Positions 2,617 to 23,295 of a stretch of 24,000 bases of DNA are shown here, in pieces. The position numbers and the translations under genes are program-made. How positions within the stretch are numbered: position 1 is the first letter of the stretch; every line of letters starts with the position of its first letter. Source of the DNA: Candidatus Electrothrix yaqonensis. Its GTDB lineage: Bacteria > Desulfobacterota > Desulfobulbia > Desulfobulbales > Desulfobulbaceae. Under the pieces are notes generated by a model that saw only the letters and a list, made by a program, of their open reading frames with translations, was not told the DNA's origin and did no database searches. The stretch is taken from NCBI GenBank assembly GCA_047651235.1, contig CP178758.1:102774-126773 (forward strand), in the 5' to 3' direction.

Positions 2617-3477
2617 TCAGCCTCTCGGATGGAAGCGCTGATGCATGGTCTTGAGCCGACTTTTATCCACATGGGTATAAATCTGGGTTGTCGCAATATC
2701 CGCATGACCGAGCATCATCTGCACGGCGCGGAGGTCAGCACCGCCTGCCAGCAGATGGGTGGCAAAGGAGTGACGCATGGTTTTCGGACTGACGTTTTTC
2801 CGCACACCGCCCAGCACAGTCAGGTCTCTGATAATCTGCCAGAAACGGTTGCGGGTCATTTTGTCAGCCCGACCGGTAACAAAGAGAAACGGACTGGTCC
2901 GTTTTTTCAGCAGAGCAGGGCGGCCCAAATCAAGATATTTCTGAATCCGTTGTCCGGCCGTTTCGTTGAACGGCACCATCCGTTCTTTCTGCCCTTTCCC
3001 TAAGATACGGACATGGCCGCTGCCGATGCTGCAGTTCCGCACAGGCAGAGCCACCAGCTCGGAGACCCGGATGCCGGTTGCATACAGCAGGTGCAGCATG
3101 GCATAGTTCCGCAGGATAAGGGGAGTACGTTTTACCGGAACTGCGGGAACCGTCAGCAGCTGATCTACCTCGTCAACCGTCAGAATTCCGGGGAGACTGC
3201 TGCCGATTTTCGGCAGATCGACTTCAGCAGCCGGATTGTCCGATCTGATCTGCCGGGCAATAAGGAAGTCAAAAAAAACCCGCAGAGCGGAGAGGCGTCT
3301 GGCATTGCTGCGGGCGTTGACATTACGCTGAAAGCAGGCTTTTAAAAAAGAACGCACCTGCTCTTCCGTGATTTGTCCTGGATCAGTGATCTCCTGCCTC
3401 CGGAGGAACCGGACAAAGAAACGCAGATCAGAGCCGTAACTGTCAACGGTATTCCGGGACAACCTGCGCTGAACCAC
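2617..3477 (-). CDS. xerD: site-specific tyrosine recombinase XerD
   Basis: Shows ATGIRVSELV, GKGQKERMVP, HSFATHLL and LGHADIATTQIYTHV...RLKTMHQRFHPRG, the R-H-R-Y catalytic layout with a XerD-type C-terminus. The listed start is a GTG at 3477. Recombinase-like N-terminal sequence continues upstream in frame (see findings). Confidence 0.85.
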   Translation of the reverse strand: MVQRRLSRNTVDSYGSDLRFFVRFLRRQEITDPGQITEEQVRSFLKACFQRNVNARSNARRLSALRVFFDFLIARQIRSDNPAAEVDLPKIGSSLPGILTVDEVDQLLTVPAVPVKRTPLILRNYAMLHLLYATGIRVSELVALPVRNCSIGSGHVRILGKGQKERMVPFNETAGQRIQKYLDLGRPALLKKRTSPFLFVTGRADKMTRNRFWQIIRDLTVLGGVRKNVSPKTMRHSFATHLLAGGADLRAVQMMLGHADIATTQIYTHVDKSRLKTMHQRFHPRG

Positions 3478-3624
3478 GAGATATCGCAGAAACAGATCAA
3501 TACTATCAGTCAGAGAAAAGGCGTTCAGGAGAGAAACCGTTTCAGTTTCAGGATGAGCATGAGAAGAAAACAGAAAACCCTGCAGCTCGGTGAGCAGACA
3601 GGGCCTGAAAAACTGCCGTCTATA

Positions 3625-3819
3625 TCAGAACCGGTTTTTCATCCGGTTGTACTTGCGAAGTTTCCGCAGTGCCTCGGCAGACTTGCGACGTTTTTTAATG
3701 CTCGGTTTTTCGTAGTATTCACGCCGTTTGAGTTCCCGCTTCACACCGTCAATCTGCAGTTTCTTCTTGAGCTGACGGATTGCGTACTCCAAGTCGCCTT
3801 TTACTTCTACTTCAATCAT
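3625..3819 (-). CDS. rpsU: 30S ribosomal protein S21
   Basis: 64-aa basic protein MIEVEVKGDLEYAIRQLKKKLQIDGVKRELKRREYYEKPSIKKRRKSAEALRKLRKY, a typical bS21 sequence and size. Confidence 0.9.
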   Translation of the reverse strand: MIEVEVKGDLEYAIRQLKKKLQIDGVKRELKRREYYEKPSIKKRRKSAEALRKLRKYNRMKNRF

Positions 3820-3898
3820 GAAAATATCACATCCTTTGTATTAATGGCATGTCCCATCTGCGTGTTCATCTTATCATCTTGATTAAGTTGAGCCGCAA

Positions 3899-3927
3899 AC
3901 ATTACGTTATACACCGGATTATGTCAA
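3899..3927 (-). promoter_or_regulatory. candidate sigma70-type promoter for rpsU
   Basis: The minus strand reads TTGACA (3927-3922), a 17-nt spacer, then TAATGT (3904-3899), about 75 nt upstream of the rpsU ATG. Pattern match only. Confidence 0.3.
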
Positions 3928-4138
3928 GGGGAAATCCATATCAAATTACTCATTCCCGAAACGAAGTATACTTTATAGCTGGAGCAGTATAAACTGAATA
4001 CAGGATCAGCTATCTGAAAGGCGTGAAGGCAAAATTTATGCCTCTTGTGGGCATATTCAAATTATGTTGCTCCAGCTATATCCATATCAAAGGCAGCAAT
4101 TATAAGCTTAACAAAATACTATTTTATTTAACGAATAT

Positions 4139-4381
4139 GTGTTATTGAAAGGCATGATCAATATCACACGAGTCCCTCCGCTTATGCCTTCAGCTACCAA
4201 CGAATTAACATTCGATACGTTTGTCGCCAAGCTCCATAATATATTTGATGAGCTCCAGGATTACCGGAAAGTCAGCCCGAACCTCACATATTCACTGATG
4301 TTACGCAGCCGAAACGCAAAATCGGCAGATTCCACGTTTTGGGTGTCTCGTAACTTACTGATCTTTTATTTGCGTGCGTAA
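4139..4381 (+). pseudogene. possible N-terminal remnant of an IS4-like transposase (weak)
   Basis: 80-aa ORF in a ~25-40% GC patch. The segment FDTFVAKLHNIFDELQDYRKVSPNLTYSL resembles, from memory, the N-terminal xxDxRxxxxxxYSL region of IS4-family transposases. No DDE domain follows. Confidence 0.2.
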
Positions 4382-4406
4382 CATCAGATCTTCAATTTGT
4401 CCGACC

Positions 4407-5711
4407 CTACTCTGTACGCACCGCCACCGAATTGGCATGGGCACCGAGTCCTTCTAAATTAGCGAGCCGCTGGATATGTTCGGCATCGTTGAGCAGGGCC
4501 TGGCGGGAATAGGAGATAACCGAACTCTTTTTGAGGAAGGTCTCGACGCCGAGGGCAGAGGAGATACGGGCTGTGCCCATCGTGGGCAGGACATGGTTGG
4601 GCCCGGCAACGTAATCTCCGGCAGCCTCCGGGGTGTGCGGGCCGAGAAAGATGGCGCCTGCGTGGTTGATCTTCGGCAGCCAGAGCCAGGGTTCCTCCAC
4701 CTGCAGTTCCAAGTGCTCAATGGCAATCTCATTGGCCAGGGCAATGCCCTCGTCCACGCTGTCCACCACCATGATCAGGCCGCGCTGCTGCAAAGAGGTC
4801 CGGGCGATATCGGCACGCTGCAGGCGGAGGAGCTGCTGTTCCAGTTGAATTTTTACAGCCTCGGCCAGAGTGGTTTCGGTGATGAGCAGCACGGCCAGGG
4901 CCTGGGGATCATGCTCGGCCTGGGCCAGCATGTCAGCAGCAATATAGGCAGGATTTGCCGAGTGATCCGCCACGATGAGCACTTCGCTCGGTCCGGCAAT
5001 CATATCAATGCGCACCCTGCCCATAACCTGCCGTTTGGCCTCGGTGACAAATTGATTCCCCGGCCCGACAATGACATCCACCGGCGCCACAGTCTCGGTA
5101 CCGAAGGCCAGAGCTGCCACAGCCCAAGCAGAACCCGCCTTGTACACCTCGCTGATTCCCGCTTCCTTGGCCGCCATGAGCAAAGCCGGAGCAACCCTCC
5201 CCTCCTTGTCCGGGGGCGTCATCATGACCCGCCGCTGCACCCCGGCAATGGCAGCTGGTACGCCGTTCATCAGTACGGAAGAAACCAGCGGAGTGGAGCC
5301 GCCCCGTCCGCCCGGCACATACAGCCCGGCCGAGTCCACCGGCCGGACCAGCCGCCCGACAATGGTGCCGTCCTCGCGGGTCAGCATCCAGGAATCCTCC
5401 ATTTCCCGCTCATGAAAGGTACGGATCCGTTCGGCGGCAAAAGCAAGGGTTGCCATGAACTCCTCGTCCACGGCCTCGGCCGCCTGATCAAACTCCTCCT
5501 CACGCACCCGCAGCTGCTCTGTGGTCATCTCCGGCGCATCAAACTGACGGGTATATTCTACAACGGCTTTATCACCACGGGTGCGGACCTGTTCCAGAAT
5601 ATCCGTAACGACTTCTATACAGTTGTCGTCTGCCAGGGCAAAACGGTCCCGCAGCGTGGCTATGATTTTTTTTCCCCGCCCGCTTGCGTAGTTTTCTATC
5701 AGAATAGTCAT
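4407..5711 (-). CDS. hisD: histidinol dehydrogenase
   Basis: 434 aa with IAGPSEVLIVAD, LAQAEHDPQA and GDYVAGPNHVLPT, which are typical HisD motifs and length. Confidence 0.9.
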   Translation of the reverse strand: MTILIENYASGRGKKIIATLRDRFALADDNCIEVVTDILEQVRTRGDKAVVEYTRQFDAPEMTTEQLRVREEEFDQAAEAVDEEFMATLAFAAERIRTFHEREMEDSWMLTREDGTIVGRLVRPVDSAGLYVPGGRGGSTPLVSSVLMNGVPAAIAGVQRRVMMTPPDKEGRVAPALLMAAKEAGISEVYKAGSAWAVAALAFGTETVAPVDVIVGPGNQFVTEAKRQVMGRVRIDMIAGPSEVLIVADHSANPAYIAADMLAQAEHDPQALAVLLITETTLAEAVKIQLEQQLLRLQRADIARTSLQQRGLIMVVDSVDEGIALANEIAIEHLELQVEEPWLWLPKINHAGAIFLGPHTPEAAGDYVAGPNHVLPTMGTARISSALGVETFLKKSSVISYSRQALLNDAEHIQRLANLEGLGAHANSVAVRTE

Positions 5712-5744
5712 GTGTACCCCAATCTTTTTTGTTCACAAAATTGA

Positions 5745-6203
5745 TTATGCAGTGCGGAGGACAACTACGGCTTCTTTGTCCCGTTCCGCAATCTGCCGGG
5801 CCGCCTTGGCAGGCACTACTTCAAAAATATCGTTGAACCGGACCACAGCCAATCGACCTTTACTGAGCTGATCAATCATTTCCTCTGCAGCAAAAATCCG
5901 GTGAATTTTCTTGTCCACAGCAAAATGATAGGGAGAACCGTTCCCGTCCAGTTCCAGCCGGTTCTGTTCAATCAGCTGTTTAATCTGGGCCTGCTGTTCA
6001 CGTCGCCGCTGTTCCTCTGCCCGTTTTTGATTGATCTCCCGGTTCCGCTGCGCCTCCGCAGCCCGCGCCGCCGCTGCTGTGTTGACTGCTTTGTCCTTTT
6101 TTTTCTTTTTCTGGTTCTGATACTGCTCCTGTTTTGCCTTGTTCGCCTGTTTTTTGCTGACCAGTCCTGCCTTGAGCAGCTGATCCTGCAGTGGATTGCC
6201 CAT
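5745..6203 (-). CDS. DUF2058 (YaiL-like) lysine/glutamate-rich protein
   Basis: The N-terminus MGNPLQDQLLKAGLV is followed by a highly charged K/E/Q/R coil and a folded C-terminal part. Strong RBS AAAGGAGGAGTC precedes the ATG at 6203. Confidence 0.65.
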   Translation of the reverse strand: MGNPLQDQLLKAGLVSKKQANKAKQEQYQNQKKKKKDKAVNTAAAARAAEAQRNREINQKRAEEQRRREQQAQIKQLIEQNRLELDGNGSPYHFAVDKKIHRIFAAEEMIDQLSKGRLAVVRFNDIFEVVPAKAARQIAERDKEAVVVLRTA

Positions 6204-6239
6204 GACTCCTCCTTTGTTTTTTTTCGCCGCAGCGGTCGG

Positions 6240-7286
6240 TTATGAACGTCTGTCCGCTTTATCTGCGGAACAGGACCGTTTTTCCCGGGCCAGAGCGCGC
6301 ATATCCTTTGCCCTGTCCGATTCATCCACAATCTCCCGTCCGATAATCTCTTCGAGAATATCCTCCAGGCTGATGACGCCGGTCACGCTGCCGTATTCAT
6401 CCACCACCACAAAAAGATGCTGATGTTTCTCAAAAAACTCCAGCATGACCTTATTCAGCGGGGCAATCTCCGGCACAAAATGAGCTGGCTGCATGATCTC
6501 CGCAAGCCGGCATTCATGCCTGCCTCCCGCCACCGCCTGCATGACCTCGTAACTGAGGACAATACCGACCACATCATTGCTGTCCCTGCCGTACACCGGC
6601 ACTCTGCTGTGCACACTCCACTGCTCTGTCAGATGTGCCGCTTCTGTCACCTTCATCTCTTTATCCAGGGTGAAGGTCACTGTTCTCGGCGTCATGACCT
6701 GACGCACGGTCTTTTCGCGCAGGTCGATGATATTGGTGATCACCTTTTCCTGATCCCTTTCGATTTCTCCGGCTCTCCGGCTCATCCGGGCAACAGCGGT
6801 CACCTCTTCTGCAGAGATTGATGCGCCTGATCTTTTGGGAATAAGGTGCGTCATAGCCTGACAGACCAGGATAATCGGTTTGAGGACAAACACCATCAGC
6901 TGCAGAGGACGGGCAATGTACGGAGCCAGCGGCCCGTTGAACTCCACCCCGATGGTTTTGGGCAGAATTTCTGACAGCAGCAGGATCACCAGGGTAAAAA
7001 AGACGGAAAACCAGATCAGGTTGCTTTCCCCCAGGACAGATGCGGCAGCAGCACCGGCCACTGAGGCGCCCATGGTATGGGCAATGGTATTCAGGGTGAG
7101 AATGGCGGTGATGGGCTGATCAATATTATTTTTCAGTTTTTTGAGAATCGCCGTGGTGTTCGGCCGCGTTTCCGCCAGCAGCTCAATGCGGCTCATGGGC
7201 AGGGAATAGAGCACAGCCTCCAGCACGCTGCAGAGCGCTGAAACGCACACAGCCAGAATAACGGCAACAGTAAGCTCCAGAAGCAC
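6240..7286 (-). CDS. CNNM/DUF21 transmembrane domain + tandem CBS protein (hemolysin/CorC-family transporter, no CorC_HlyC tail)
   Basis: Four hydrophobic helices (LELTVAVILAV..., ITAILTLNTIAHT..., LIWFSVFFTLVILLLSEILPK...) are followed by a CBS pair (VRQVMTPR...VPVY...IVGIV; HLFVVVDEYGSVTGVISLEDILEEIIG). The track ORF runs to 7367. I prefer the GTG at 7286, which is preceded by GGAGGG (7293-7298). Confidence 0.8.
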   Translation of the reverse strand: MLLELTVAVILAVCVSALCSVLEAVLYSLPMSRIELLAETRPNTTAILKKLKNNIDQPITAILTLNTIAHTMGASVAGAAAASVLGESNLIWFSVFFTLVILLLSEILPKTIGVEFNGPLAPYIARPLQLMVFVLKPIILVCQAMTHLIPKRSGASISAEEVTAVARMSRRAGEIERDQEKVITNIIDLREKTVRQVMTPRTVTFTLDKEMKVTEAAHLTEQWSVHSRVPVYGRDSNDVVGIVLSYEVMQAVAGGRHECRLAEIMQPAHFVPEIAPLNKVMLEFFEKHQHLFVVVDEYGSVTGVISLEDILEEIIGREIVDESDRAKDMRALAREKRSCSADKADRRS

Positions 7287-12347: not shown

Positions 12348-13472
12348 ATGGCCAAGTTGTCAGTAAGCGTAAGCAGCCGTAAAAGAGATTTGATCGAATG
12401 GGATTTTACTCAGTTGCCGTGTCGAAAAGAGGATACTCCCTCTAAGGGCGGAGGAATCATTATGATGGCCGGTTCCACCTTCTTTATCGGTATGCCGACT
12501 TTGGCCGTGATCATGTCCATCCGTGATGGAACGTTCGAGCCCGCCATGCTGATGGCGCTGATTTTAACGGTGAGCGGTATCGGTCTTTTCCTATTCGGCC
12601 TCTACTTGTTCTCTGCACGCACAGTGACGGAGTTCGACGGCAAGACATTCCGTTATCGGAGCAAATCGCTCTTTGGCAGCAAGGCATGGGATGAGCCGTT
12701 GTCTAAGTACGAAGGAGTGCTGGCACGTAGTAAATACCACTCGGGCGGCAGGAACAGTTCGTCCTATACCGACTATATCGTCGAGCTGATACATCCTGAC
12801 GAGCAACGCCGGATCACACTGTGGCAGAGCCGCAACAGTTCGTCCGGCCATCGCGCAAACTGGGAAAAGTACTGCCGACAATTCGGACTGCCCGCCCTCA
12901 AGGAGGACGGTGAAGGGTACACGCGGCGCGCCCCTGATGACCTTGACAAGTCTGTGCGTGAACTTGCAGCAGAAGGCAAGTTGGAGATCCCGTTCGATCC
13001 TGCTGCTGCCGTGCCCGAGGTGCTAAAACTCAATATCCAAGGAGATCAACTGGAAATGGTAATCGGTACTCCTAAGACACCACTCTGGAAGTGGCTGATC
13101 GGGATGGTGATCACATTTGCCATCCCCGCTCTTTTTATCTGGATTGGAGGTGGACACGCTGTTTTCGGAGCACTATTCGGTGTGCTCATGGTGGGGGCAT
13201 TCATCTGGACATTAATTGCGACACCTCTCGTGCGGATCAACCGGAAAGGTCTTCACGTCCTGTACCGCACCCCTTGGGGAGAAACGCGGGGGAAACGTAT
13301 TTCTGCCGAGGCTATCAGGAATGTGCGTGTGGGTAAGGCAAGGCCAAGGCAAAGCTCGCCATCCGTTGTTGTGGAGACGGCTGCCACCAACCATGCCATC
13401 GGACAGGGACTTGAAGAGGATGCTCTGGAGTGGCTGAAGAACTGCATTCTCAGCAAGGTCGCGGACGGGTAA
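12348..13472 (+). CDS. hypothetical four-TM membrane protein, paralog A (two 2TM-hairpin + beta-rich soluble modules)
   Basis: 374 aa, with RBS GAGGAGG at 12332-12338. Hydrophobic hairpins lie at about residues 36-88 and 245-295. Each is followed by a soluble segment (TVTEFDGKTFRYR...IVELIHPDEQRRITLWQS; LVRINRKGLHVLYRTPWGETRGKRI...VVVETAATNHAIG...ALEWLKNCI). I recognise no family. Confidence 0.7.
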   Translation: MAKLSVSVSSRKRDLIEWDFTQLPCRKEDTPSKGGGIIMMAGSTFFIGMPTLAVIMSIRDGTFEPAMLMALILTVSGIGLFLFGLYLFSARTVTEFDGKTFRYRSKSLFGSKAWDEPLSKYEGVLARSKYHSGGRNSSSYTDYIVELIHPDEQRRITLWQSRNSSSGHRANWEKYCRQFGLPALKEDGEGYTRRAPDDLDKSVRELAAEGKLEIPFDPAAAVPEVLKLNIQGDQLEMVIGTPKTPLWKWLIGMVITFAIPALFIWIGGGHAVFGALFGVLMVGAFIWTLIATPLVRINRKGLHVLYRTPWGETRGKRISAEAIRNVRVGKARPRQSSPSVVVETAATNHAIGQGLEEDALEWLKNCILSKVADG

Positions 13473-13495
13473 GGATTTTAGCCGAGGAGAATACC

Positions 13496-14602
13496 ATGAA
13501 TAATGGCAACGTATCGATAGAATGGGACTTTAGCAAGTTACCGTGCAGGCATGAGGAGCCTCCCTCTCAGGGCTCAGGGGTCATCATGATGACCCTCGCT
13601 GCTTTTTTCGGCGGCACACCGACCTTGATCTTGATTTACTTCCTCCTCAAGGGAAAATTCGAACCTGACATGCTGTTCTTGTTATTTTTCACGGTGGTTG
13701 GCACCGGTCTTTTTCTGTTGGGCCTCGACATGTTCTCCATGCACACGGTGACGGAGTTTGACGGCAAAATATTCCGTTATAAACAAACATCATTTATTAT
13801 CAGCAGTGCTTGGGATGAGCCGCTGACCAACTACGAAGGAGTCTTAGCACGCAGTGAGTATCACAGAAGCGACAGCAACAGCCCGTCCTGCACTCTCTAT
13901 ATTGTCGAGCTGCTGCATCCTGATGAGCAACGCCGGATTACACTGTGGCAGAGCCGTAACAGTTCGTCCGGTCATCGCGTAAGCTGGAAAACATACAGCC
14001 AACAACTCGGATTGCCTGCTTTCTGGCAGGACGAGAACTGCCAAGAATACACGCAACATGATCCCAAAGATCTTGACAAATCTGTGCGTGAACTTGCAGC
14101 CGAAGGCAAGCTGGAGATCACGTTTGATCTTAAAGCTGCTGTGCCCGAGGAGCTGGACCTCAACGTCCAAGGTGACCAATTAGAAGTGATGATCGACGGT
14201 CCCACAGTGTCGCTCCGGGCAATGCCGATTGTGCTCGGCATCATTGCTCTTGTTCTCTGGTATGCTATCCGGCATGGAGGAAACTGCTTTCAATTTTTTG
14301 GATTATTTGTATTGTTAATGGGATGCTCAACTATCTGGACATCAATTATGACTCCTTTGGTGCGGATCAAACGGGAAGGTATTCACATTCTGCACCGCAC
14401 TCCTTGGGGAGAAACACGGGGGAATCGTATTCGTGCTGACTCCATTGAAAATGTACGCGTGAGCAAAGAAAAGAATATGCAGGGCCGACCCGCCGTTATG
14501 GTGGAGACGGATACTGGCAGCCACGCCATCGGGCTGGGACTTGACAGGGAGGCTCTTGAGTGGCTGAAGAACTGCATTCTCAAGAAGGTCGTGGACGGGT
14601 AA
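13496..14602 (+). CDS. hypothetical four-TM membrane protein, paralog B
   Basis: Collinear with paralog A over its full length, at very roughly 55-60% identity by eye. The track ORF starts at 13430 inside paralog A. I prefer the ATG at 13496, which has GAGGAG at 13484-13489. Confidence 0.7.
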   Translation: MNNGNVSIEWDFSKLPCRHEEPPSQGSGVIMMTLAAFFGGTPTLILIYFLLKGKFEPDMLFLLFFTVVGTGLFLLGLDMFSMHTVTEFDGKIFRYKQTSFIISSAWDEPLTNYEGVLARSEYHRSDSNSPSCTLYIVELLHPDEQRRITLWQSRNSSSGHRVSWKTYSQQLGLPAFWQDENCQEYTQHDPKDLDKSVRELAAEGKLEITFDLKAAVPEELDLNVQGDQLEVMIDGPTVSLRAMPIVLGIIALVLWYAIRHGGNCFQFFGLFVLLMGCSTIWTSIMTPLVRIKREGIHILHRTPWGETRGNRIRADSIENVRVSKEKNMQGRPAVMVETDTGSHAIGLGLDREALEWLKNCILKKVVDG

Positions 14603-15364: not shown

Positions 15365-16747
15365 TCAAACCGCACTGTTAATCGCACCCTTCAGCACCAT
15401 TTCCTTCCATAACGCTAAAAAATTTTTCGCTGATTCCCTGCTCAGGTGAGCTTCCGTGCAGGCAAGATGAAGAGTTGCCGTATTCTTGTAGGTTGAAATG
15501 GTATATATACATCCGCCAGGTAATATCGGGGCAAGCAGGGAAAGGCTTCCGGATTTTGTATGTCCGAAATCACCTGCCTTCTCATCTATAATGCCGATAT
15601 TGGTCATGGCGTGATTCTGCTGTACAAATGCAATCAGTTTTTTTTTGGCGCGTAAAGACAATCGGCGGACAAGAACATAAGGGATACATTTTATGAGCAG
15701 CATAACGAAAAAGGCATGTAAGCCGATTGTTTCTTTTACCTTGTCAACTTTTGCTTTTGTGCTGGCCAAGGCAATGGATGGTGTCTGTAAATTTTCATAG
15801 ATTTCTTCATGCGGTAAAACTATGCTGAAATTCCCGAAGGTTCCTTCCGGTTCTCCCCACCAGCGACGCAGGTTTGCTGTATAGAAGAATTTCAGCCAGT
15901 CACGCTCGTCGCCAAGTTTCTTGTTCCACGTCATTGCTGCTAGGGAAAATGATGTCATCAGAATGTCATTCACCGTCACATGCTTGCGTTCTGCAAATGC
16001 CTTTACCTCTGTCATCAATTCGTTTTCAATCGTAATACTTTCAAAGTAGGGTAGTTCATGGATGCCTTCTTGTGTGTCAACGACGGTGTCAGCAGCGTTA
16101 TCATTGATCAGCTGATAGCCTGTTCTCTTTTGGCGGATGGAGGTAATTGTTCCGTACACATCCACAAGGTATGCTTTGACGACCAGAAACAAATGAGCCA
16201 GGCTGAATTTTTTTCCTATTTGCCACCAGCTTCTGCATGGATCAGATATTTCTGCAGGTCGCCAGCCTTTCTCCCTGTATAATGCCCTATAAATTTCAGT
16301 AAACCGGATACATATTCGTTTCAGTCCTTCGCCGTCAACCACAAGATGATGCACTTGGATCACAAAGTAATGTTCTGTTGGCCCGTCAATTGAACTGACT
16401 CGAATCATAGAACATTCTCTTGCATTAATGGGGTTTGAAAAGGTTTTCTGCAGTTGTTTTCTGGCCTCCTCGTCGGTACTGGCGTGGATACTTACAATCA
16501 GATCATCGACATTCTTTTTTTCGATAAATTGCCAGGTTCCATAGAACCAGTTTGTGACAGGTCTGGTGCATAGAATCGGAACAGTTTGCATAAGGTATTT
16601 CAGAGCGTTGTTAATGAGATTATCTTTAAGCGGCTCGTCAAGTGAGGCAATCGCCCAAATGCAGAACAGATCCTGATCGTTGACTAAATTCCAGACAACC
16701 TGATCCATTCCGGTCATCCGTGTGGAGTTTTGCTTCCTCGGTACCAT
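15365..16747 (-). CDS. stand-alone condensation-domain / WS-DGAT / PapA5-superfamily acyltransferase (HHxxxDG)
   Basis: Catalytic HHLVVDG lies at 16331-16351, about 150 residues from the N-terminus. The ~460-aa size is typical of this superfamily. The track start is a TTG at 16795. I prefer the ATG at 16747, preceded by GAGG. GC is ~40%, against ~57% in the adjacent ABC genes. Confidence 0.65.
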   Translation of the reverse strand: MVPRKQNSTRMTGMDQVVWNLVNDQDLFCIWAIASLDEPLKDNLINNALKYLMQTVPILCTRPVTNWFYGTWQFIEKKNVDDLIVSIHASTDEEARKQLQKTFSNPINARECSMIRVSSIDGPTEHYFVIQVHHLVVDGEGLKRICIRFTEIYRALYREKGWRPAEISDPCRSWWQIGKKFSLAHLFLVVKAYLVDVYGTITSIRQKRTGYQLINDNAADTVVDTQEGIHELPYFESITIENELMTEVKAFAERKHVTVNDILMTSFSLAAMTWNKKLGDERDWLKFFYTANLRRWWGEPEGTFGNFSIVLPHEEIYENLQTPSIALASTKAKVDKVKETIGLHAFFVMLLIKCIPYVLVRRLSLRAKKKLIAFVQQNHAMTNIGIIDEKAGDFGHTKSGSLSLLAPILPGGCIYTISTYKNTATLHLACTEAHLSRESAKNFLALWKEMVLKGAINSAV

Positions 16748-16813
16748 GATTATACCTCGCTGTATTCGATTGCTCCCGCTGTGACGGATAGACAACCCTT
16801 GATCTCTCTTGGA

Positions 16814-18641: not shown

Positions 18642-18831
18642 CTGTTCCCCTCTGCTCTGTGCGCCTGCCGTGCATTGTTGGGGGCGGGCCTCTGATTCTC
18701 CAGGTACAGTCGATTATAAACAAGGCGCTGCGGAATGTCTATCTTCCTGAGCTTTTCCGTGGTGGAGACTGTCCTGTTCGGGTATACTTGGGAGCATTAC
18801 TGATTAAATTCAAGCCAATGGAGGGAAGGGT

Positions 18832-19191
18832 ATGGACTTTGTCACTTCCGCGATTGCGTCTGCGGTAGGCAGCCTGGGGCTGGAGGGCGTAAAGCATGGA
18901 TACACCAGGTTAAAGGAGCTGTTACAGGGTAAGTTCGGCGAACAGAGCGCGCTGGCTGATGCAGTGGAGCAGTTGGAGAAGAACCCGGACTCTGCTGGGC
19001 GGAAGGCCGTGGTGGCAGAGGAGCTGGCAAAGGTCGGGGCGGATAAGGATGAGGAGGTGCTGGCTGCGGCCAGGCAGTTGCAGGACAAGCTCGACGGAGG
19101 GCAGCCGCAGGTGGATGCCCGAAAAGCCAAGATAGGGGTGATAGGGGATCATGCCAAGGTGAAAGGCGGCATTCATTTCGACGGGAAATAA
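18832..19191 (+). CDS. small helical effector candidate (Bell-like) with a C-terminal amyloid-signalling-type motif
   Basis: 119 aa, with RBS GGAGGGAAGGGT before the ATG. It has an N-terminal Gly/Ala-rich hydrophobic helix (MDFVTSAIASAVGSLGLEGV), then amphipathic helices, then the C-terminal IGVIGDHAKVKGGIHF (nt 19132-19179). That motif is repeated at the N-terminus of the next gene product. Confidence 0.65.
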   Translation: MDFVTSAIASAVGSLGLEGVKHGYTRLKELLQGKFGEQSALADAVEQLEKNPDSAGRKAVVAEELAKVGADKDEEVLAAARQLQDKLDGGQPQVDARKAKIGVIGDHAKVKGGIHFDGK

Positions 19192-19206
19192 CCGACAGAG
19201 GATAAT

Positions 19207-19234
19207 GTAGGGTCACGGCGCGCCGTGCCCCTAC
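19207..19234. repeat. 28-nt near-perfect GC-rich palindrome between the effector and NLR genes
   Basis: GTAGGG-T-CACGGCG|CGCCGTG-C-CCCTAC, with 13 of 14 positions pairing. It covers the alternative GTG start at 19225. Confidence 0.8.
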
Positions 19235-19251
19235 GGTATGGTGATTTACAA

Positions 19252-21192
19252 ATGAGCGATCAGATTGGAATCATTGGCGACAAGGCCAAGGTGGAAGGCG
19301 GTATTCATTTCCATAGTCACTCTGCCCCGGCCAAACTTCCCCATCTTCTTCCTCCGCAAGACACTGTTTTCCTGTACCGGGAGGACGAACTGGCTTGGCT
19401 GGATCAGCACCTGCACCCTGACAAGGTGGTTGCTGTGTGCGGACCCGGCGGCATGGGCAAGACCTCTCTGGCTGCCCGCGCCGTGCGTAGCCTGCCTCCT
19501 GACCGCTTCCCGGACGGCATTATCTTTCACACCTTTTACCATCAGGCCGAGACCACCAAGGCCCTCCAGACCATTGCCCATGCCCTGGGCCTCAAGGCTG
19601 AGGCCGATCTGGAGCAGCAGGTAGCTGCGGCCCTGGGCAGCAGGCAGGCCCTGCTGATTCTGGACGGGGCTGAGGAGGCGGAAGACCTCCAGGCGGTGCT
19701 GCCTCTGCGGGGGCGATGCGGGGTGTTGATCACCACCCGGAAGAAGAGCGATTGCGGGCCGCTGCGCCTGGACCTGCAAGCCCTGCCGGATGAGCAGTCT
19801 GAGGATGTGCTGCGGGCCTGGGGCGGGGAGGCCGGGGATCAGGACGCCATAGAGGAGATTGCCGAGCTGCTGGGTGGCTGGCCCGTGGCCCTGCGTCTGG
19901 CCGGGCATTATCTGCACAGCACCGGAGAGCCTGCAACAGACTACCTGCGCTGGTTGGAGGAGGAGCCGTTCAAGGAGCTGGGGGAGAGTGAGGAGCACCA
20001 GCGGGATAATGCGGCCCTACTGCTCAGGCGGAGCACGGCCCAGGTGGGAGAGGATGCCCGCCTTGTGCTGGGACTGGCAGGGTGTCTGGCCTTTGACCTG
20101 CTGTCTGCTGCGCCCATGACTGCCCTGCTGGAGGACGATACCCGCCGCTGCCGCAAGGCTGTGAACGAGCTGGTCAATTACGGCCTGCTGGAACGCCGGG
20201 GCGACCGCCTGCACATAGGTCATGCCTTGATCCATGAGTACGCAGCCCGGAACCTGCCCCTGAGCACAGAGGCTCTGGAGCGGGTGGCTGCTTATTATAT
20301 TGATTGGTGCAAGGAACAGAGTGCTGCCGGTGTGCCGGGTTATGCCCGTATGGATGATGAACGGGCGCATTGCCTGCGGTTGATAAAGAGCTGTTTGGAC
20401 AGGGAGCTGTGGGAGGCGGTGAAAGGGTTGGTCTGGGCAATCGACATCTACTTAGACCGACAGGGCTGGTGGACAGAGGAACTGGCTGCCTGGGAGATGG
20501 GGCTGACTGCGGCCCGGCAGGCTGGCGACCGCAAGGGTGAACGCTGGTGCCTGACCAACCTAGGGTACACCAGTCGACAACGCGGAGACGATGATAAGGG
20601 CTTGGACTACTATCAGCAGAGTCTGACTATAGCCCGTGAGCTGGGAGATAGAGAGGCTGAAGGAGAACTTTTGAACAACATGGGTGTAATCTTTCGGCAA
20701 CAGGGCAAGTATGAGCTGGCCTGGGAGCAGTATCATCAAAGCCTCAGTATCAAGCGGAAGATCGGTGACCGTGAGGGGGAAGGAGTGACCCTGAATAATA
20801 TCGGTGAGTTTTACCGAAACCAAGGCGAGTATGAACAAGCCCTGCAGTATTATAAGCAATGCTTACCTATCAGAAGGGAAACTGGAAGCAGTAGAGGAGA
20901 AAGTATAACTCTGACTAACATTGCCGCGATATACCGTGCACAAGGTAATCCTATCAAGGCATTGGAGTATCACGAACAAGCCTTGGCAATACGGCAGGAG
21001 CTTGGTGATAGGGCCAGAGAATCGCAGAGCCTCTATAACATCGGCCGCACCTATGAAGATATGGGCGACCTTACCCAAGCCGAGGAATACATTGCCCTGG
21101 CCGTGGAGATTGCAGAGGCTATGGGGCATCCTTCCTTAGAGAAATACCGCAACTACCTGGAGCAGCTGCGGGCCAAGCGGCAGGCAGGGTAG
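19252..21192 (+). CDS. STAND/NLR-type NTPase: N-terminal amyloid-type motif + NB-ARC domain + five 40-residue TPR repeats
   Basis: The N-terminus is MSDQIGIIGDKAKVEGGIHF (motif nt 19264-19311). It carries Walker A GPGGMGKTS (19441-19467), Walker B ALLILDGAEE, VLITTRKK and a GGWPVALRLAG (GxP/GLPL-type) motif. TPR units span 20536-21135 (e.g. GEGVTLNNIGEFYRNQGEYEQALQYYKQCLPIRRETG). The track start is the GTG at 19225, which sits inside the palindrome, so I prefer the ATG at 19252. Confidence 0.85.
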   Translation: MSDQIGIIGDKAKVEGGIHFHSHSAPAKLPHLLPPQDTVFLYREDELAWLDQHLHPDKVVAVCGPGGMGKTSLAARAVRSLPPDRFPDGIIFHTFYHQAETTKALQTIAHALGLKAEADLEQQVAAALGSRQALLILDGAEEAEDLQAVLPLRGRCGVLITTRKKSDCGPLRLDLQALPDEQSEDVLRAWGGEAGDQDAIEEIAELLGGWPVALRLAGHYLHSTGEPATDYLRWLEEEPFKELGESEEHQRDNAALLLRRSTAQVGEDARLVLGLAGCLAFDLLSAAPMTALLEDDTRRCRKAVNELVNYGLLERRGDRLHIGHALIHEYAARNLPLSTEALERVAAYYIDWCKEQSAAGVPGYARMDDERAHCLRLIKSCLDRELWEAVKGLVWAIDIYLDRQGWWTEELAAWEMGLTAARQAGDRKGERWCLTNLGYTSRQRGDDDKGLDYYQQSLTIARELGDREAEGELLNNMGVIFRQQGKYELAWEQYHQSLSIKRKIGDREGEGVTLNNIGEFYRNQGEYEQALQYYKQCLPIRRETGSSRGESITLTNIAAIYRAQGNPIKALEYHEQALAIRQELGDRARESQSLYNIGRTYEDMGDLTQAEEYIALAVEIAEAMGHPSLEKYRNYLEQLRAKRQAG

Positions 21193-22379
21193 GGGGGTAT
21201 GCAGCTCCTCATGGATGACCGCCTTATCGCGGGGCGCAGCTTAACCGGACTGCGCAATGTTATCAGGGCAATCTCACTGCGCTGCCAGAGGCGCATTCGC
21301 GGCCCCCAAGTTCCGGTGCCCCGGCAGACAAACAGGCTCATGCCCTTAACCAGATACTGACCGCTGAGAAAAGGATAGCGGCTGCGGACCAGATAACTGA
21401 ACGGCCAGATCTGGCCGTTATGCGTATGGCCGGAGAGCATGAGGCCGACGCCGTCAGCAGCGGCCTGTTCAACCAGCCAGGGCGTATGGGAAAGCAGAAT
21501 GGTCGCTCCGGCAGGCCGATCAGTCAGGGCGCGGGTGAGGTCGGCTTTTCCCTGTCCGCTCCGGCGGCGGGATGAGGTCAGATCATCAATCCCGGCCAGC
21601 ACCAGCCCGGGGGCAAGCTCTGTCCATTCATTACTCAGCAGGCGGATGCCGGAAGCAGCCAGGATGCTTCCGGCGCGATCAGGGCGGCCGGGCCGAAAGC
21701 GGTCATGATTGCCCCGCACCGCGAACACGCCCAGCGGAGCGGAGAGCTGCTGCAGGACCGGAGCCAGTGCCGCCGCATCGCTGCCCCGCTCAAACAGGTC
21801 GCCGACCAGAACGATGCAGTCCGGCTGCAGATTCTGTACCTGTCGGACGCGGGCCTTGAGCCAGTCCGCATTGATGAACATCTTACCGAGATGGAGGTCC
21901 GAAAGCACTACCACTGTGGTTCCGTCCAGATTCGCAGGCAGCCCGCTGACCGTGGTTGCATACTGCTCAACAACCGGTGGCTGCAGGCCCTGCACATGGG
22001 CGATCAGCACCAGGCCGATACCGCAGGCCAGGGTAGCTGAGCGGATGCGGAGCACAACCGCTTTAGGTAGAAGCAGCCCGAAACCTGTGAGCAGGTCGGC
22101 AGCGAATAAGGTCATTGCAAGCAGGAACAGGCTGCCCATCCACTGTATTCCCGCAACTCCCGCAACTCCCGCAACTTCGAGCAGCTCTGTCAACAGACTG
22201 CCCTTCTGTCTACGAAACATCCGGCCCAGCACAAAGACCAGCCAGAGCAGCACGCCGATCCCCCATAACATCCTGCGCCTGATCCGGCTGCGGCACAGGG
22301 GCAGAGAAGCCAGCCGGACAAAAACATACAGGTGCATCACGGTCGTCAGAAAAGTCAGGACTGTACCGAAAAATGACAT
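21153..22379 (-). CDS. membrane-anchored calcineurin-like metallophosphoesterase (YkuE-like)
   Basis: About 140 N-terminal residues form hydrophobic helices. They are followed by VVLSDLHLG, LVGDLFERG, RGNHD and SGHTHNGQ phosphoesterase motifs. Confidence 0.8.
   Translation of the reverse strand: MSFFGTVLTFLTTVMHLYVFVRLASLPLCRSRIRRRMLWGIGVLLWLVFVLGRMFRRQKGSLLTELLEVAGVAGVAGIQWMGSLFLLAMTLFAADLLTGFGLLLPKAVVLRIRSATLACGIGLVLIAHVQGLQPPVVEQYATTVSGLPANLDGTTVVVLSDLHLGKMFINADWLKARVRQVQNLQPDCIVLVGDLFERGSDAAALAPVLQQLSAPLGVFAVRGNHDRFRPGRPDRAGSILAASGIRLLSNEWTELAPGLVLAGIDDLTSSRRRSGQGKADLTRALTDRPAGATILLSHTPWLVEQAAADGVGLMLSGHTHNGQIWPFSYLVRSRYPFLSGQYLVKGMSLFVCRGTGTWGPRMRLWQRSEIALITLRSPVKLRPAIRRSSMRSCIPPYPACRLARSCSR
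22150..22176. repeat. 9-bp tandem repeat x3 (CCCGCAACT) inside the metallophosphoesterase gene
   Basis: Three perfect copies, encoding VAG-VAG-VAG in a predicted membrane/loop segment. Confidence 0.8.
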
Positions 22380-22791: not shown

Positions 22792-23295
22792 TTGACAGAG
22801 GAGCACCCAGGCCGCCCTGTCAGAAATTCTGAATACGTAAAGCGTGTAAGTGAATCTGTGGAAGCAACCGGATACGAAAAGGATTTTTATTCATGGGCGA
22901 TGCAGAATGCTGCTTTGCTCCGCGAACGGAGGCTGCAGGAAATTGATACGGAGAATATAGCAGAAGAGCTTGAGGCGATGGGTAAAAAAGAAAGGAGAGA
23001 ACTCATCAGCCGTCTGAGCGTCCTGATTGCCCATCTGCTGAAATGGCCGTATCAGGCTGTAAGAAGATCGAGAAGCTGGAAAAATACTGTCTCAACGCAG
23101 CGTATCGATATCAACGAACTCTTTGAAGACAGTCCGAGCCTTCGGCATGGCCTCGGAGAGACAATAAAAAAGGCGTATAAAAAAGCGGTGCTGAAGGCGG
23201 AGGATGAAACCGGTATCGCCAAGGAGCAGTTTCCCGGAAATTGTCCGTTTTCAGCTGAAGAAATACTCAATGAAGATTTTTTCCCGCAGGAATAG
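22792..23295 (+). CDS. DUF29 family protein
   Basis: Shows YEKDFYSWAMQNAALLRERRLQEIDTENIAEELEAMGKKERRELISRLSVLIAHLLKWPYQ, the DUF29 signature from memory. The real start may be the in-frame GTG at 22858. Confidence 0.7.
   Translation: MTEEHPGRPVRNSEYVKRVSESVEATGYEKDFYSWAMQNAALLRERRLQEIDTENIAEELEAMGKKERRELISRLSVLIAHLLKWPYQAVRRSRSWKNTVSTQRIDINELFEDSPSLRHGLGETIKKAYKKAVLKAEDETGIAKEQFPGNCPFSAEEILNEDFFPQE

Follow-up and report, generated by a model that had tools for sequence, protein, structure and literature searches.

Do two neighbouring genes of a cable bacterium, one encoding a protein of 119 amino acids (aa) and the other a protein of 646 aa, belong to a single signalling system, and what would that system do? 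The genes lie at positions 18,832 to 21,192 of a 24,000-nucleotide (nt) stretch of the Candidatus Electrothrix yaqonensis genome (GenBank assembly GCA_047651235.1, contig CP178758.1, positions 102,774 to 126,773, forward strand), and this whole stretch is called the window below. In this study, we believe that they form a two-gene regulated-cell-death module, in which a Bell-domain effector and a NOD-like receptor (NLR; NOD, nucleotide-binding oligomerization domain) are linked by a shared tag of the bacterial amyloid signalling sequence (BASS) type, and we put the probability of this reading at roughly 0.75. An initial annotation made from the letters alone had proposed the same core, a Bell-like effector joined through a common tag to a receptor with an NB-ARC domain and tetratricopeptide repeats (TPR), and homology, structural models, collinearity and class-level co-variation of the tags all support it.

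The two genes are collinear on the same strand with a spacer of 60 nt between them, and the open reading frames (ORFs) and tag positions of the initial annotation were exact on re-reading. The NLR start was placed at ATG 19252 (MSDQ...), and the longer start at GTG 19225 was not taken, because the MS[DN]Q start is conserved in the relatives and one related locus (L014) has an in-frame stop just upstream. The exact effector protein is annotated as "hypothetical protein" in Candidatus Electrothrix sp. YB6. The features of the pair, with the basis of each in brackets, are as follows; AF2 stands for AlphaFold2, and type A is the tag class of the window, defined further below.

18820..18825, plus strand: Shine-Dalgarno sequence GGAGGG of the effector gene, 6 nt before ATG 18832 (direct reading).
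18832..19191, plus strand: putative Bell-domain effector gene, 119 aa (Pfam PF20701, phmmer, family profile).
18832..19101, plus strand: predicted globular Bell domain, aa 1-90, with hydrophobic helix 1 (aa 3-13, MDFVTSAIASAVG) and four more helices (AF2).
19108..19179, plus strand: effector-side signalling motif QVDARKAKIGVIGDHAKVKGGIHF, aa 93-116, with its core at 19132-19179 (disordered, kept in type-A relatives).
19207..19234, plus strand: intergenic hairpin GUAGGGUCACGGCG-CGCCGUGCCCCUAC, with no U-tract after it (found in all five type-A loci).
19240..19245, plus strand: Shine-Dalgarno-like GGTGAT of the NLR gene (comparison of type-A loci).
19252..21192, plus strand: NLR-like gene, 646 aa, with tag, NB-ARC, winged helix and TPR (Pfam, AF2, Foldseek).
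19261..19311, plus strand: NLR-side signalling motif QIGIIGDKAKVEGGIHF, aa 4-20 (BLASTP of the pair, direct reading).
19396..19998, plus strand: NB-ARC nucleotide-binding domain, aa 49-249 (Pfam, motifs).
20266..21189, plus strand: helical-repeat/TPR sensor, aa 339-646 (AF2, Pfam).

The effector ends in ...QVDARKAKIGVIGDHAKVKGGIHFDGK, with the tag core IGVIGDHAKVKGGIHF at aa 101-116 (nt 19132-19179), and the NLR begins with MSDQIGIIGDKAKVEGGIHFHSHS from its ATG, with the tag IGIIGDKAKVEGGIHF following MSDQ at aa 5-20 (nt 19264-19311). That the two tags agree in 13 of 16 residues and that the proteins are otherwise dissimilar had been noticed beforehand, and both statements held: the identity was 13/16, or 13/17 when the preceding K/Q is counted, and the tag was the sole significant similar segment between the effector and the NLR (BLASTP, E = 1e-6; all others E > 0.6). 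The Smith-Waterman score of the tag was 73, whereas 20,000 shuffled versions of the tail gave 21.8 +/- 4.5 and at most 50 (z = 11.5). At the DNA level, the back-translated GGIHF pattern GGNGGNATHCAYTTY occurred at exactly two sites in the 24 kb, which are the two tags, and the expected count was 0.02. The contents of G, I, V, L and P in the tags were 20%, 14%, 9%, 1% and 0%, respectively, with 8% K and 1% N, and leucine made up 12% of the globular part compared with 1% of the tags. Studies have shown that BASS motifs are about 25 aa long and are biased towards G, V, I, N and Q and away from L, P and K (bioRxiv 10.1101/2020.01.06.895854). The tag composition appears to fit this bias for G, I, V, L and P, and lysine and asparagine depart from it.

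Is the small protein a Bell protein? It passed the Pfam model PF20701 (HetE-N) with 28.3 bits (cut-off 25), and precomputed annotation assigns PF20701 to all but one of its 23 relatives. When it was compared by phmmer with 18 C-terminal Bell fragments published in the supplement of PMC8086366, the scores against PLS85526.1, AFR28659.1, CCI22909.1, KZB79293.1 and PIB05176.1 were 35.5, 34.6, 30.0, 20.1 and 19.6 bits, respectively. The truncated fragments themselves gave no match to PF20701, because this model leans on the N-terminal helix, and the homology was therefore shown via phmmer. The profile scan of the small protein called for in the initial annotation has in this way turned up Bell homology; NCBIfam holds no family matching the effector. 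A profile made from the 23 relatives retrieved 1473 cluster representatives, mostly of 115-150 aa.

The AF2 model of the effector, which was built on the same 23 relatives, has helices at residues 3-13, 18-35, 40-50, 55-68 and 74-87, with a predicted local distance difference test score (pLDDT) of 80-89, followed by a disordered tail at aa 91-119 in which the motif has a pLDDT below 50 in the monomer model. The protein starts with M-D-F-V-T-S-A-I-A-S-A-V-G-S-L-G-L, that is, with an acidic residue at position 2 and a hydrophobic, small-residue helix 1, and its relatives begin with MDPIT, MEPIS or MDFIT. A "MEPIS"-type start has been described for Bell, Hell and Bab proteins (bioRxiv 10.1101/2024.11.07.622273), and the M-D-F-V-T start appears to resemble this signature. 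Judged by its sequence and predicted fold, the small protein is a Bell-domain homologue, and by analogy it would be expected to kill.

The large protein was readily classified. Pfam matched NB-ARC (E = 2.6e-12), TPR_12 (E = 1.8e-42) and five TPR_1/TPR_10 stretches, with the TPR_12/TPR_10 matches spanning aa 429-627. The NB-ARC motifs are intact, namely Walker A GPGGMGKTS (19441-19467), Walker B LLILDGAEE (19651-19677), the sensor-1 TTR motif LITTRKK (19726-19746) and the GxP motif GGWPVALRLAG (19873-19905), and G69, K70, D138 and P211 are invariant across 40 NLR homologues. The AF2 model (pLDDT 91, predicted template modelling score 0.85) has helix pairs from 339 to 645, and residues 1-25, with a pLDDT of about 31, form a flexible extension ahead of the NOD. 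The top Foldseek matches were the STAND (signal transduction ATPase with numerous domains)-TPR protein 6MFV (E = 3e-17), Apaf-1 (1Z6T), the plant NRC/ZAR1 proteins, CED-4 and Avs3. The earlier description of this protein as an NB-ARC STAND NTPase with a five-unit TPR sensor was borne out by Pfam, by the motifs and by AF2 and Foldseek; Tandem Repeats Finder detected no DNA-level tandem repeat in the TPR region.

Desulfobulbus sp. TB and numerous genomes of Electrothrix and Electronema encode homologues of the NOD, and more distant ones were found in filamentous Chloroflexi and Methanothrix. A paralogous NLR with 59% identity is encoded elsewhere in the YB6 genome, and the N-terminal motifs are swapped among NLR homologues whose NODs are closely related. 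Among the homologues P0185, P0204, P0216, P0281 and P0167-P0193, many carry two different tags in tandem, GDQNIAQGDGAIGKQVN and then V.G.GNI.SGTG.V, and in some the tag is preceded by one or two hydrophobic segments predicted to be membrane-like.

If the tag serves to connect the two proteins, a change on one side should be mirrored on the other. The pairs of the relatives were gathered locus by locus, and the genomic context was retrieved for eleven effector relatives; two scans of genome contigs for relatives gave no tblastn-confirmed match, and a metagenome scan gave four loci only. In all 11 contexts, the effector is followed by a same-strand gene encoding an NB-ARC, NACHT or TPR protein. 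The effector relatives share a nearly invariant domain of 85 residues (aa 1-85), after which come tails of at least five unrelated classes. Thirteen Electrothrix-type pairs were compared, and in 12 of them the partner encoded downstream has an N-terminus that matches the tail. Their tags fall into types A to F.

Type A (window, L002, L010, L012, L014): tail QVDAR.AQIGV.GD.A.VKGGIHF; partner (IDARKAD)IGI.GDKA.V.GGIHFH.
Type B (L009, L011, L004): tail V[ST]G..NIFSG[ST]G.V.V; partner V[KS]G..NI[FV][ST]..G.V.[VI].
Type C (L017, L021): tail SGSGAI.QNGGV..GAGG.AIGGNV.GGINM; partner with the corresponding NLR sequence.
Type D (L006): 36-residue tail match; partner GG V.VGGDV.G.VY.HSGNGD.NIA.GEGAIGKQVN.
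Type E (second pair of L009): weaker match, score 48.
Type F (L019): score 21, at background level.

In the 13 x 13 score matrix, the sum over cognate pairs was 988 compared with a permutation mean of 479, and it was reached by 0 of 100,000 permutations; tags of the same type scored about 71-76 and tags of different types about 25. The comparison of effector and NLR motifs that had been proposed at the outset has thus given class-level co-variation in the 13 pairs. In L002, the NLR bears a complete counterpart of the 24-aa effector-side motif. Motif A was also found on Bell proteins that diverge far more strongly (no fewer than 13 among the 165 proteins collected), and one such divergent Bell/TPR pair (L023) carries it on both partners, GKFNVQVSGGQVGNIGDQANIQGGIHFG and TNIDISGGQFGVVGDHATIQGGVHFY. 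Tail and tag change together across the relatives, and this is the strongest evidence for reading the two genes as a pair.

Some of the related loci have unusual architectures. One contig (L009) holds two Bell/NLR pairs 3 kb apart, at 1024-2701 and 4001-6539, with tags of type B and type E, and in the first of these pairs the NLR, at 266 + 184 aa and lacking TPR, is either split or truncated. The type-D partner at 4479-6617 of L006 (Electrothrix sp. GW3-4, CP147990.1) has no P-loop or NB-ARC match and is made up of the 36-residue tag, a charged, helical segment and TPR, which makes it a sensor without an NTPase, recalling Agp. At L004 (227-1108 and 1137-3569; also L005, P0125), TIR_2 is fused upstream of the Bell domain in a protein of 293 aa with a type-B tag, and this TIR_2-Bell protein is paired with a NACHT protein bearing the same type-B tag.

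To which BASS class does the tag belong? The sequence sets of BASS1-10 were taken from the supplement of PMC8086366, and hidden Markov models (HMMs) were built from them in this analysis. The GG[IV]HF ending had been tentatively labelled BASS1, and this label did not stand: GGIHF and GGVHF endings occur only in the BASS2 files and are absent from the BASS1 files, and the BASS1 HMM (17 NLR-side sequences, G.GR[IV][YF]QA.GDQHI.EHHHH type) gave -1.3 bits for the effector and 4.5 bits for the NLR, compared with a member median of 57.8. With motif-only BASS2 HMMs, the scores of type-A motifs exceeded the shuffle means and those of all other classes. Only with the NLR-side BASS2 HMM of 60 aa, which includes the linker, was the low end of the member range reached: the window NLR had 28.8 bits, where members have a minimum of 25.5 and a median of 51.4, and the effector had 5.4. 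What is common to the BASS2 profile (N.[IV]SG.V.G.VVQARD[IV].GG[IV].F) is only the half V.GG[IV]HF[HG], and the other half, [IV]G.[IV]GDH..V, resembles AFR28659.1/AFR28658.1, a pair left unassigned by its authors. The tag is probably best described as fitting none of BASS1-10 clearly, with a BASS2-like end. The analysis defines a widespread tag, ...Q[IV]G[VI].GD.A.[VI].GG[IV]HF, with no clear place in BASS1-10.

The 60-nt spacer between the two genes carries a G+C-rich hairpin at 19207-19234, which occurs once in the window and is not a dispersed repeat. A hairpin stands at the same position in 5/5 type-A loci (L012 3499-3518, L014 4374-4391, and the spacers of L010 and L002), and its stems are wholly different in L010 (GGACAATTC/GAATTGTCC) and L002 (GGGCGGTTC/GAACCGCCC). 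RNAalifold predicted 12 pairs, 5 of them with changes on both sides, and the single-sequence folding energies of the hairpins were -15 to -21 kcal/mol. Because the pairing is conserved and the sequence is not, the hairpin probably has a structural role in RNA or DNA rather than being a sequence-specific protein site. Shine-Dalgarno sequences of the GGTGAT type are complementary to the 3' end of 16S rRNA, and ATGG[TG]GAT lies 6-10 nt before the NLR ATG in 4/5 type-A loci (window, L010, L012, L014), with GGGAAACA in L002. We speculated that the hairpin, together with the strong effector Shine-Dalgarno (GGAGGG) and the weaker one of the NLR (GGTGAT), may uncouple the expression of the two genes and keep the effector in excess over the sensor. 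Scanning for promoters and terminators returned weak consensus matches only, none of them convincing as a promoter of the pair, and Rfam had no match in the window.

The host is a filamentous cable bacterium of the Desulfobulbaceae (Thermodesulfobacteriota), and YB6 is a clonal enrichment culture with a closed genome (PMC12093952). Bell/NLR pairs have been reported to be restricted to multicellular prokaryotes, in which their role was stated to be unresolved (bioRxiv 10.1101/2024.11.07.622273), and the filamentous multicellular host fits this restriction. No paper that connects cable bacteria with NLRs or with amyloid signalling turned up in our literature search. The initial annotation had put the pair at 65-72% GC against 52-58% for neighbouring genes and had suggested a high-GC donor. 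However, the Bell and NLR genes each have 59.2% GC (GC at third codon positions, GC3, 71% and 67%, respectively), like their neighbours: the ABC transporter genes have 59.6-60.3% (GC3 76-78%), the metallophosphoesterase gene 61.9% and hisD 60.3%. These values (59.2% against flanks of 59.6-61.9%) lend no support to high-GC import. Other Electrothrix pairs adjoin HipA/HTH, PIN and Gp49/HTH toxin-antitoxin genes, UvrA-like genes and a transposase-associated gene.

Several further features were seen around the pair and its relatives. The 3' end of the NLR gene overlaps that of a convergent gene by 40 nt (21153-21192); the convergent gene (21153-22379, minus strand) encodes a membrane-anchored metallophosphoesterase, and a terminator-like hairpin lies at 21171-21147 on the minus strand. 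The only nearby compositional outliers are low in GC, namely a condensation-domain gene (44%) and a DUF29 gene (48%). The former (15365-16795, GC3 47%) encodes a condensation domain of the non-ribosomal peptide synthetase type and stands beside ABC exporter genes, and the latter (22792-23295) lies downstream of the pair. A XerC/D-type tyrosine recombinase gene (2617-3477) is followed by a low-GC stretch (3600-4400, 41% GC), two overlapping ORFs of 374 and 390 aa at 12348-14602 have no Pfam match, and the ARAGORN call of a tRNA-Ser(GGA) at 5280-5369 on the minus strand, within the hisD coding sequence, is probably a false positive. The variable surroundings of related loci were seen at L010 2648-3811, L012/L006 73-3239 and L019 3434-5163, and the module is not syntenic with the window there.

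How might such a pair work? BASS1 and BASS3 have been assayed in Podospora, and every Bell/NLR motif with this arrangement that was tested gave fibrils and prions (bioRxiv 10.1101/2020.01.06.895854). Bab/Agp provides amyloid-dependent abortive infection, and the G11K mutation in helix 1 of Bab abolishes defence (bioRxiv 10.1101/2024.11.07.622273). By analogy with these systems and with HET-S/NWD2, amyloid formation, cross-seeding and killing would be expected of the pair as well. At rest, the NLR would be monomeric, ADP-bound and auto-inhibited, and the effector would be soluble with helix 1 buried. A trigger, most likely a phage-derived protein or else a damage or non-self cue in the filament, would be bound by the TPR sensor, and nucleotide exchange and oligomerisation of the NLR would follow. 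The clustered N-terminal tags would then fold into a cross-beta (beta-arch) template with the strands IGII, AKV and IHF and with GD and GG turns between them, and this template would convert the matching tails of many effector molecules. Conversion would free helix 1 for membrane insertion, leading to cell death, that is, to abortive infection of one cell in a multicellular filament. Our preference for a phage cue rests on the one relative that has been tested, an abortive-infection system, and on the toxin-antitoxin and transposase surroundings of the pairs in other Electrothrix genomes.

Several observations weigh against this module. The core on the NLR side is short (17 aa compared with about 25 in typical BASS; the effector-side motif has 24 aa), and this NLR-side core is rich in Lys and without Asn, unlike most BASS. 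Motif-only BASS2 HMMs gave the type-A motifs 5-15 bits, compared with member medians of 23-35. Within type A, no pair-specific co-variation was seen (permutation fraction 0.62), and the specificity lies at class level only. The Bell model matched no solved structure, Bab 9H9V included. The neighbours in the window are housekeeping genes rather than a defence island, and PADLOC has no model for the pair. The short, Lys-rich and Asn-poor NLR-side motif, the weak BASS profile scores, the missing co-variation within type A and the lack of any structure assigned to the tag by AF2 would also suit a homotypic docking peptide, working by beta-strand augmentation or as a small oligomeric zipper, which recruits the effector stoichiometrically with no amyloid templating. 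We consider such docking improbable. Between tested BASS pairs, cross-seeding reportedly tolerates 43-56% identity, and because templating is said to tolerate about 50% identity, fine co-variation within type A would not be expected. Moreover, the composition and the spacing of the Gly turns are those of beta-arch motifs, and the effector motif reaches 24 aa and has its full counterpart on the NLR of L002. The fibrils and prions given by all tested motifs of this layout (bioRxiv 10.1101/2020.01.06.895854) also speak for templating.

The same mechanism might serve a developmental or non-self death, such as filament severing or strain discrimination, instead of defence. We also considered this role, given the housekeeping context, and it seems unlikely but deserves attention: Bell/NLR pairs are tied to multicellular prokaryotes with their function stated as unresolved (bioRxiv 10.1101/2024.11.07.622273), no defence-island context was found in the window, and tblastn against phage genomes matched no homologue. 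Against it, the one Bell/BASS system whose function has been tested protects against phage by abortive infection, other Electrothrix pairs lie among typical variable-island content (toxin-antitoxin, UvrA-like, transposase), and the several paralogues, whose tags are swapped and whose sensors vary, have the look of an immune repertoire. Because Bell and NLR are known to be fused in all-in-one proteins (bioRxiv 10.1101/2020.01.06.895854) and several related NLR genes are split or truncated, the tag similarity could be thought a relic of the fission of a Bell-NB-ARC protein, or of a gene conversion that duplicated the linker. However, a relic would decay on one side, and here both partners have retained each of at least five unrelated motif classes, across many genomes and with the Bell domain near-identical, with motif A on both partners even of a pair with a much more divergent Bell domain, which leaves this origin highly improbable. 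Hardly any credence is due to the idea that the small protein is a precursor of a ribosomally synthesized and post-translationally modified peptide and that the large one acts in its maturation or regulation, as TPR proteins of the FxSxx-COOH/HaaT kind do. The partial NCBIfam matches behind it, FxSxx_TPR with 139 bits and HaaA_phane_TPR with 138 bits, fall far short of the curated cut-offs of 300 and 1125, respectively, and a general likeness among NB-ARC/TPR proteins accounts for them; no radical S-adenosylmethionine or other maturase gene is nearby, and the small protein has a folded helical domain of 90 aa rather than a leader peptide. On these scores, the peptide-precursor reading was rejected.

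The Bell/BASS/NLR module remains our preferred reading, and it would extend paired amyloid-type signalling to cable bacteria, a striking case of multicellular life among bacteria, where the death of one cell affects a whole conducting filament. To a specialist, this confirms the link with multicellularity rather than being a surprise, and it may offer an entry point to regulated cell death in cable bacteria. The relatives amount to a natural experiment on tag specificity, with one putative killer domain and at least five swapped tags mirrored on the partners, and the Podospora and E. coli Bab/Agp chassis, both already established, lend themselves to direct tests of the motifs. The conserved spacer hairpin may tune the stoichiometry of effector and NLR. 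Going further, we tentatively speculated, with more doubt than confidence, that a set of amyloid "address codes", orthogonal to one another, may be maintained in cable bacteria, with at least five unrelated tags on a nearly invariant Bell domain, each with its own matching sensor, and with two pairs of different tags 3 kb apart on a single contig. Different sensors could fire separate effector pools without cross-talk; the death of a single cell in the electrically coupled filament would cut the wire and isolate the infected segment, and the hairpin would set the silent effector-to-sensor ratio.

Among known systems, the closest are the Bell/BASS/NB-ARC-TPR pairs that Dyrka, Saupe et al. 2020 (bioRxiv 10.1101/2020.01.06.895854) described in Actinobacteria and Cyanobacteria. 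They share with our pair a short Bell protein of about 120 aa that carries the motif C-terminally, a neighbouring, collinear NB-ARC/TPR gene whose product carries it N-terminally, a G/V/I-rich and L/P-poor motif and a multicellular host; the effector is homologous to the published Bell proteins, and the NOD to Methanothrix and Chloroflexi NLRs of the type described in that study. In contrast, their hosts belong to other phyla than the Thermodesulfobacteriota cable bacteria, from which paired motifs had not been reported, the motif of our pair lies outside clear BASS1-10 membership, and their genes usually overlap or have a gap of at most 10 bp, compared with 60 nt with a conserved hairpin here. 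Bab/Agp (BASS11) of E. coli ECOR25 (Ibarlosa et al. 2024, bioRxiv 10.1101/2024.11.07.622273), the only member with demonstrated function, likewise has a small helical killer with an acidic start, a hydrophobic helix 1 and a C-terminal tag, next to a TPR sensor with the same tag at its N-terminus. It differs in that Bab has a shorter "Babybell" domain, and our effector gives no sequence or Foldseek match to 9H9V. HET-S/NWD2 of Podospora anserina, whose motifs are of the HET-s-related amyloid motif (HRAM) type, follows the same logic, as the N-terminal motif of an NLR templates the C-terminal motif of an adjacent pore-forming effector; however, this fungal system has a HeLo domain, a NACHT-WD40 receptor and a two-repeat beta-solenoid motif on the effector, compared with the single motif here. 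The all-in-one Avs and bNACHT STANDs resemble our NLR in combining a STAND NTPase with a repeat sensor (Foldseek match to Avs3), and some of them carry a Bell-like N-terminal helix according to Ibarlosa et al., whereas their effector is fused to the sensor with no amyloid relay and the two proteins of our pair are separate and linked only by the tag. The paradigm of a Bell effector, a shared tag and an NLR is already published, and the pair described here adds a lineage, a tag and a spacer hairpin to it.

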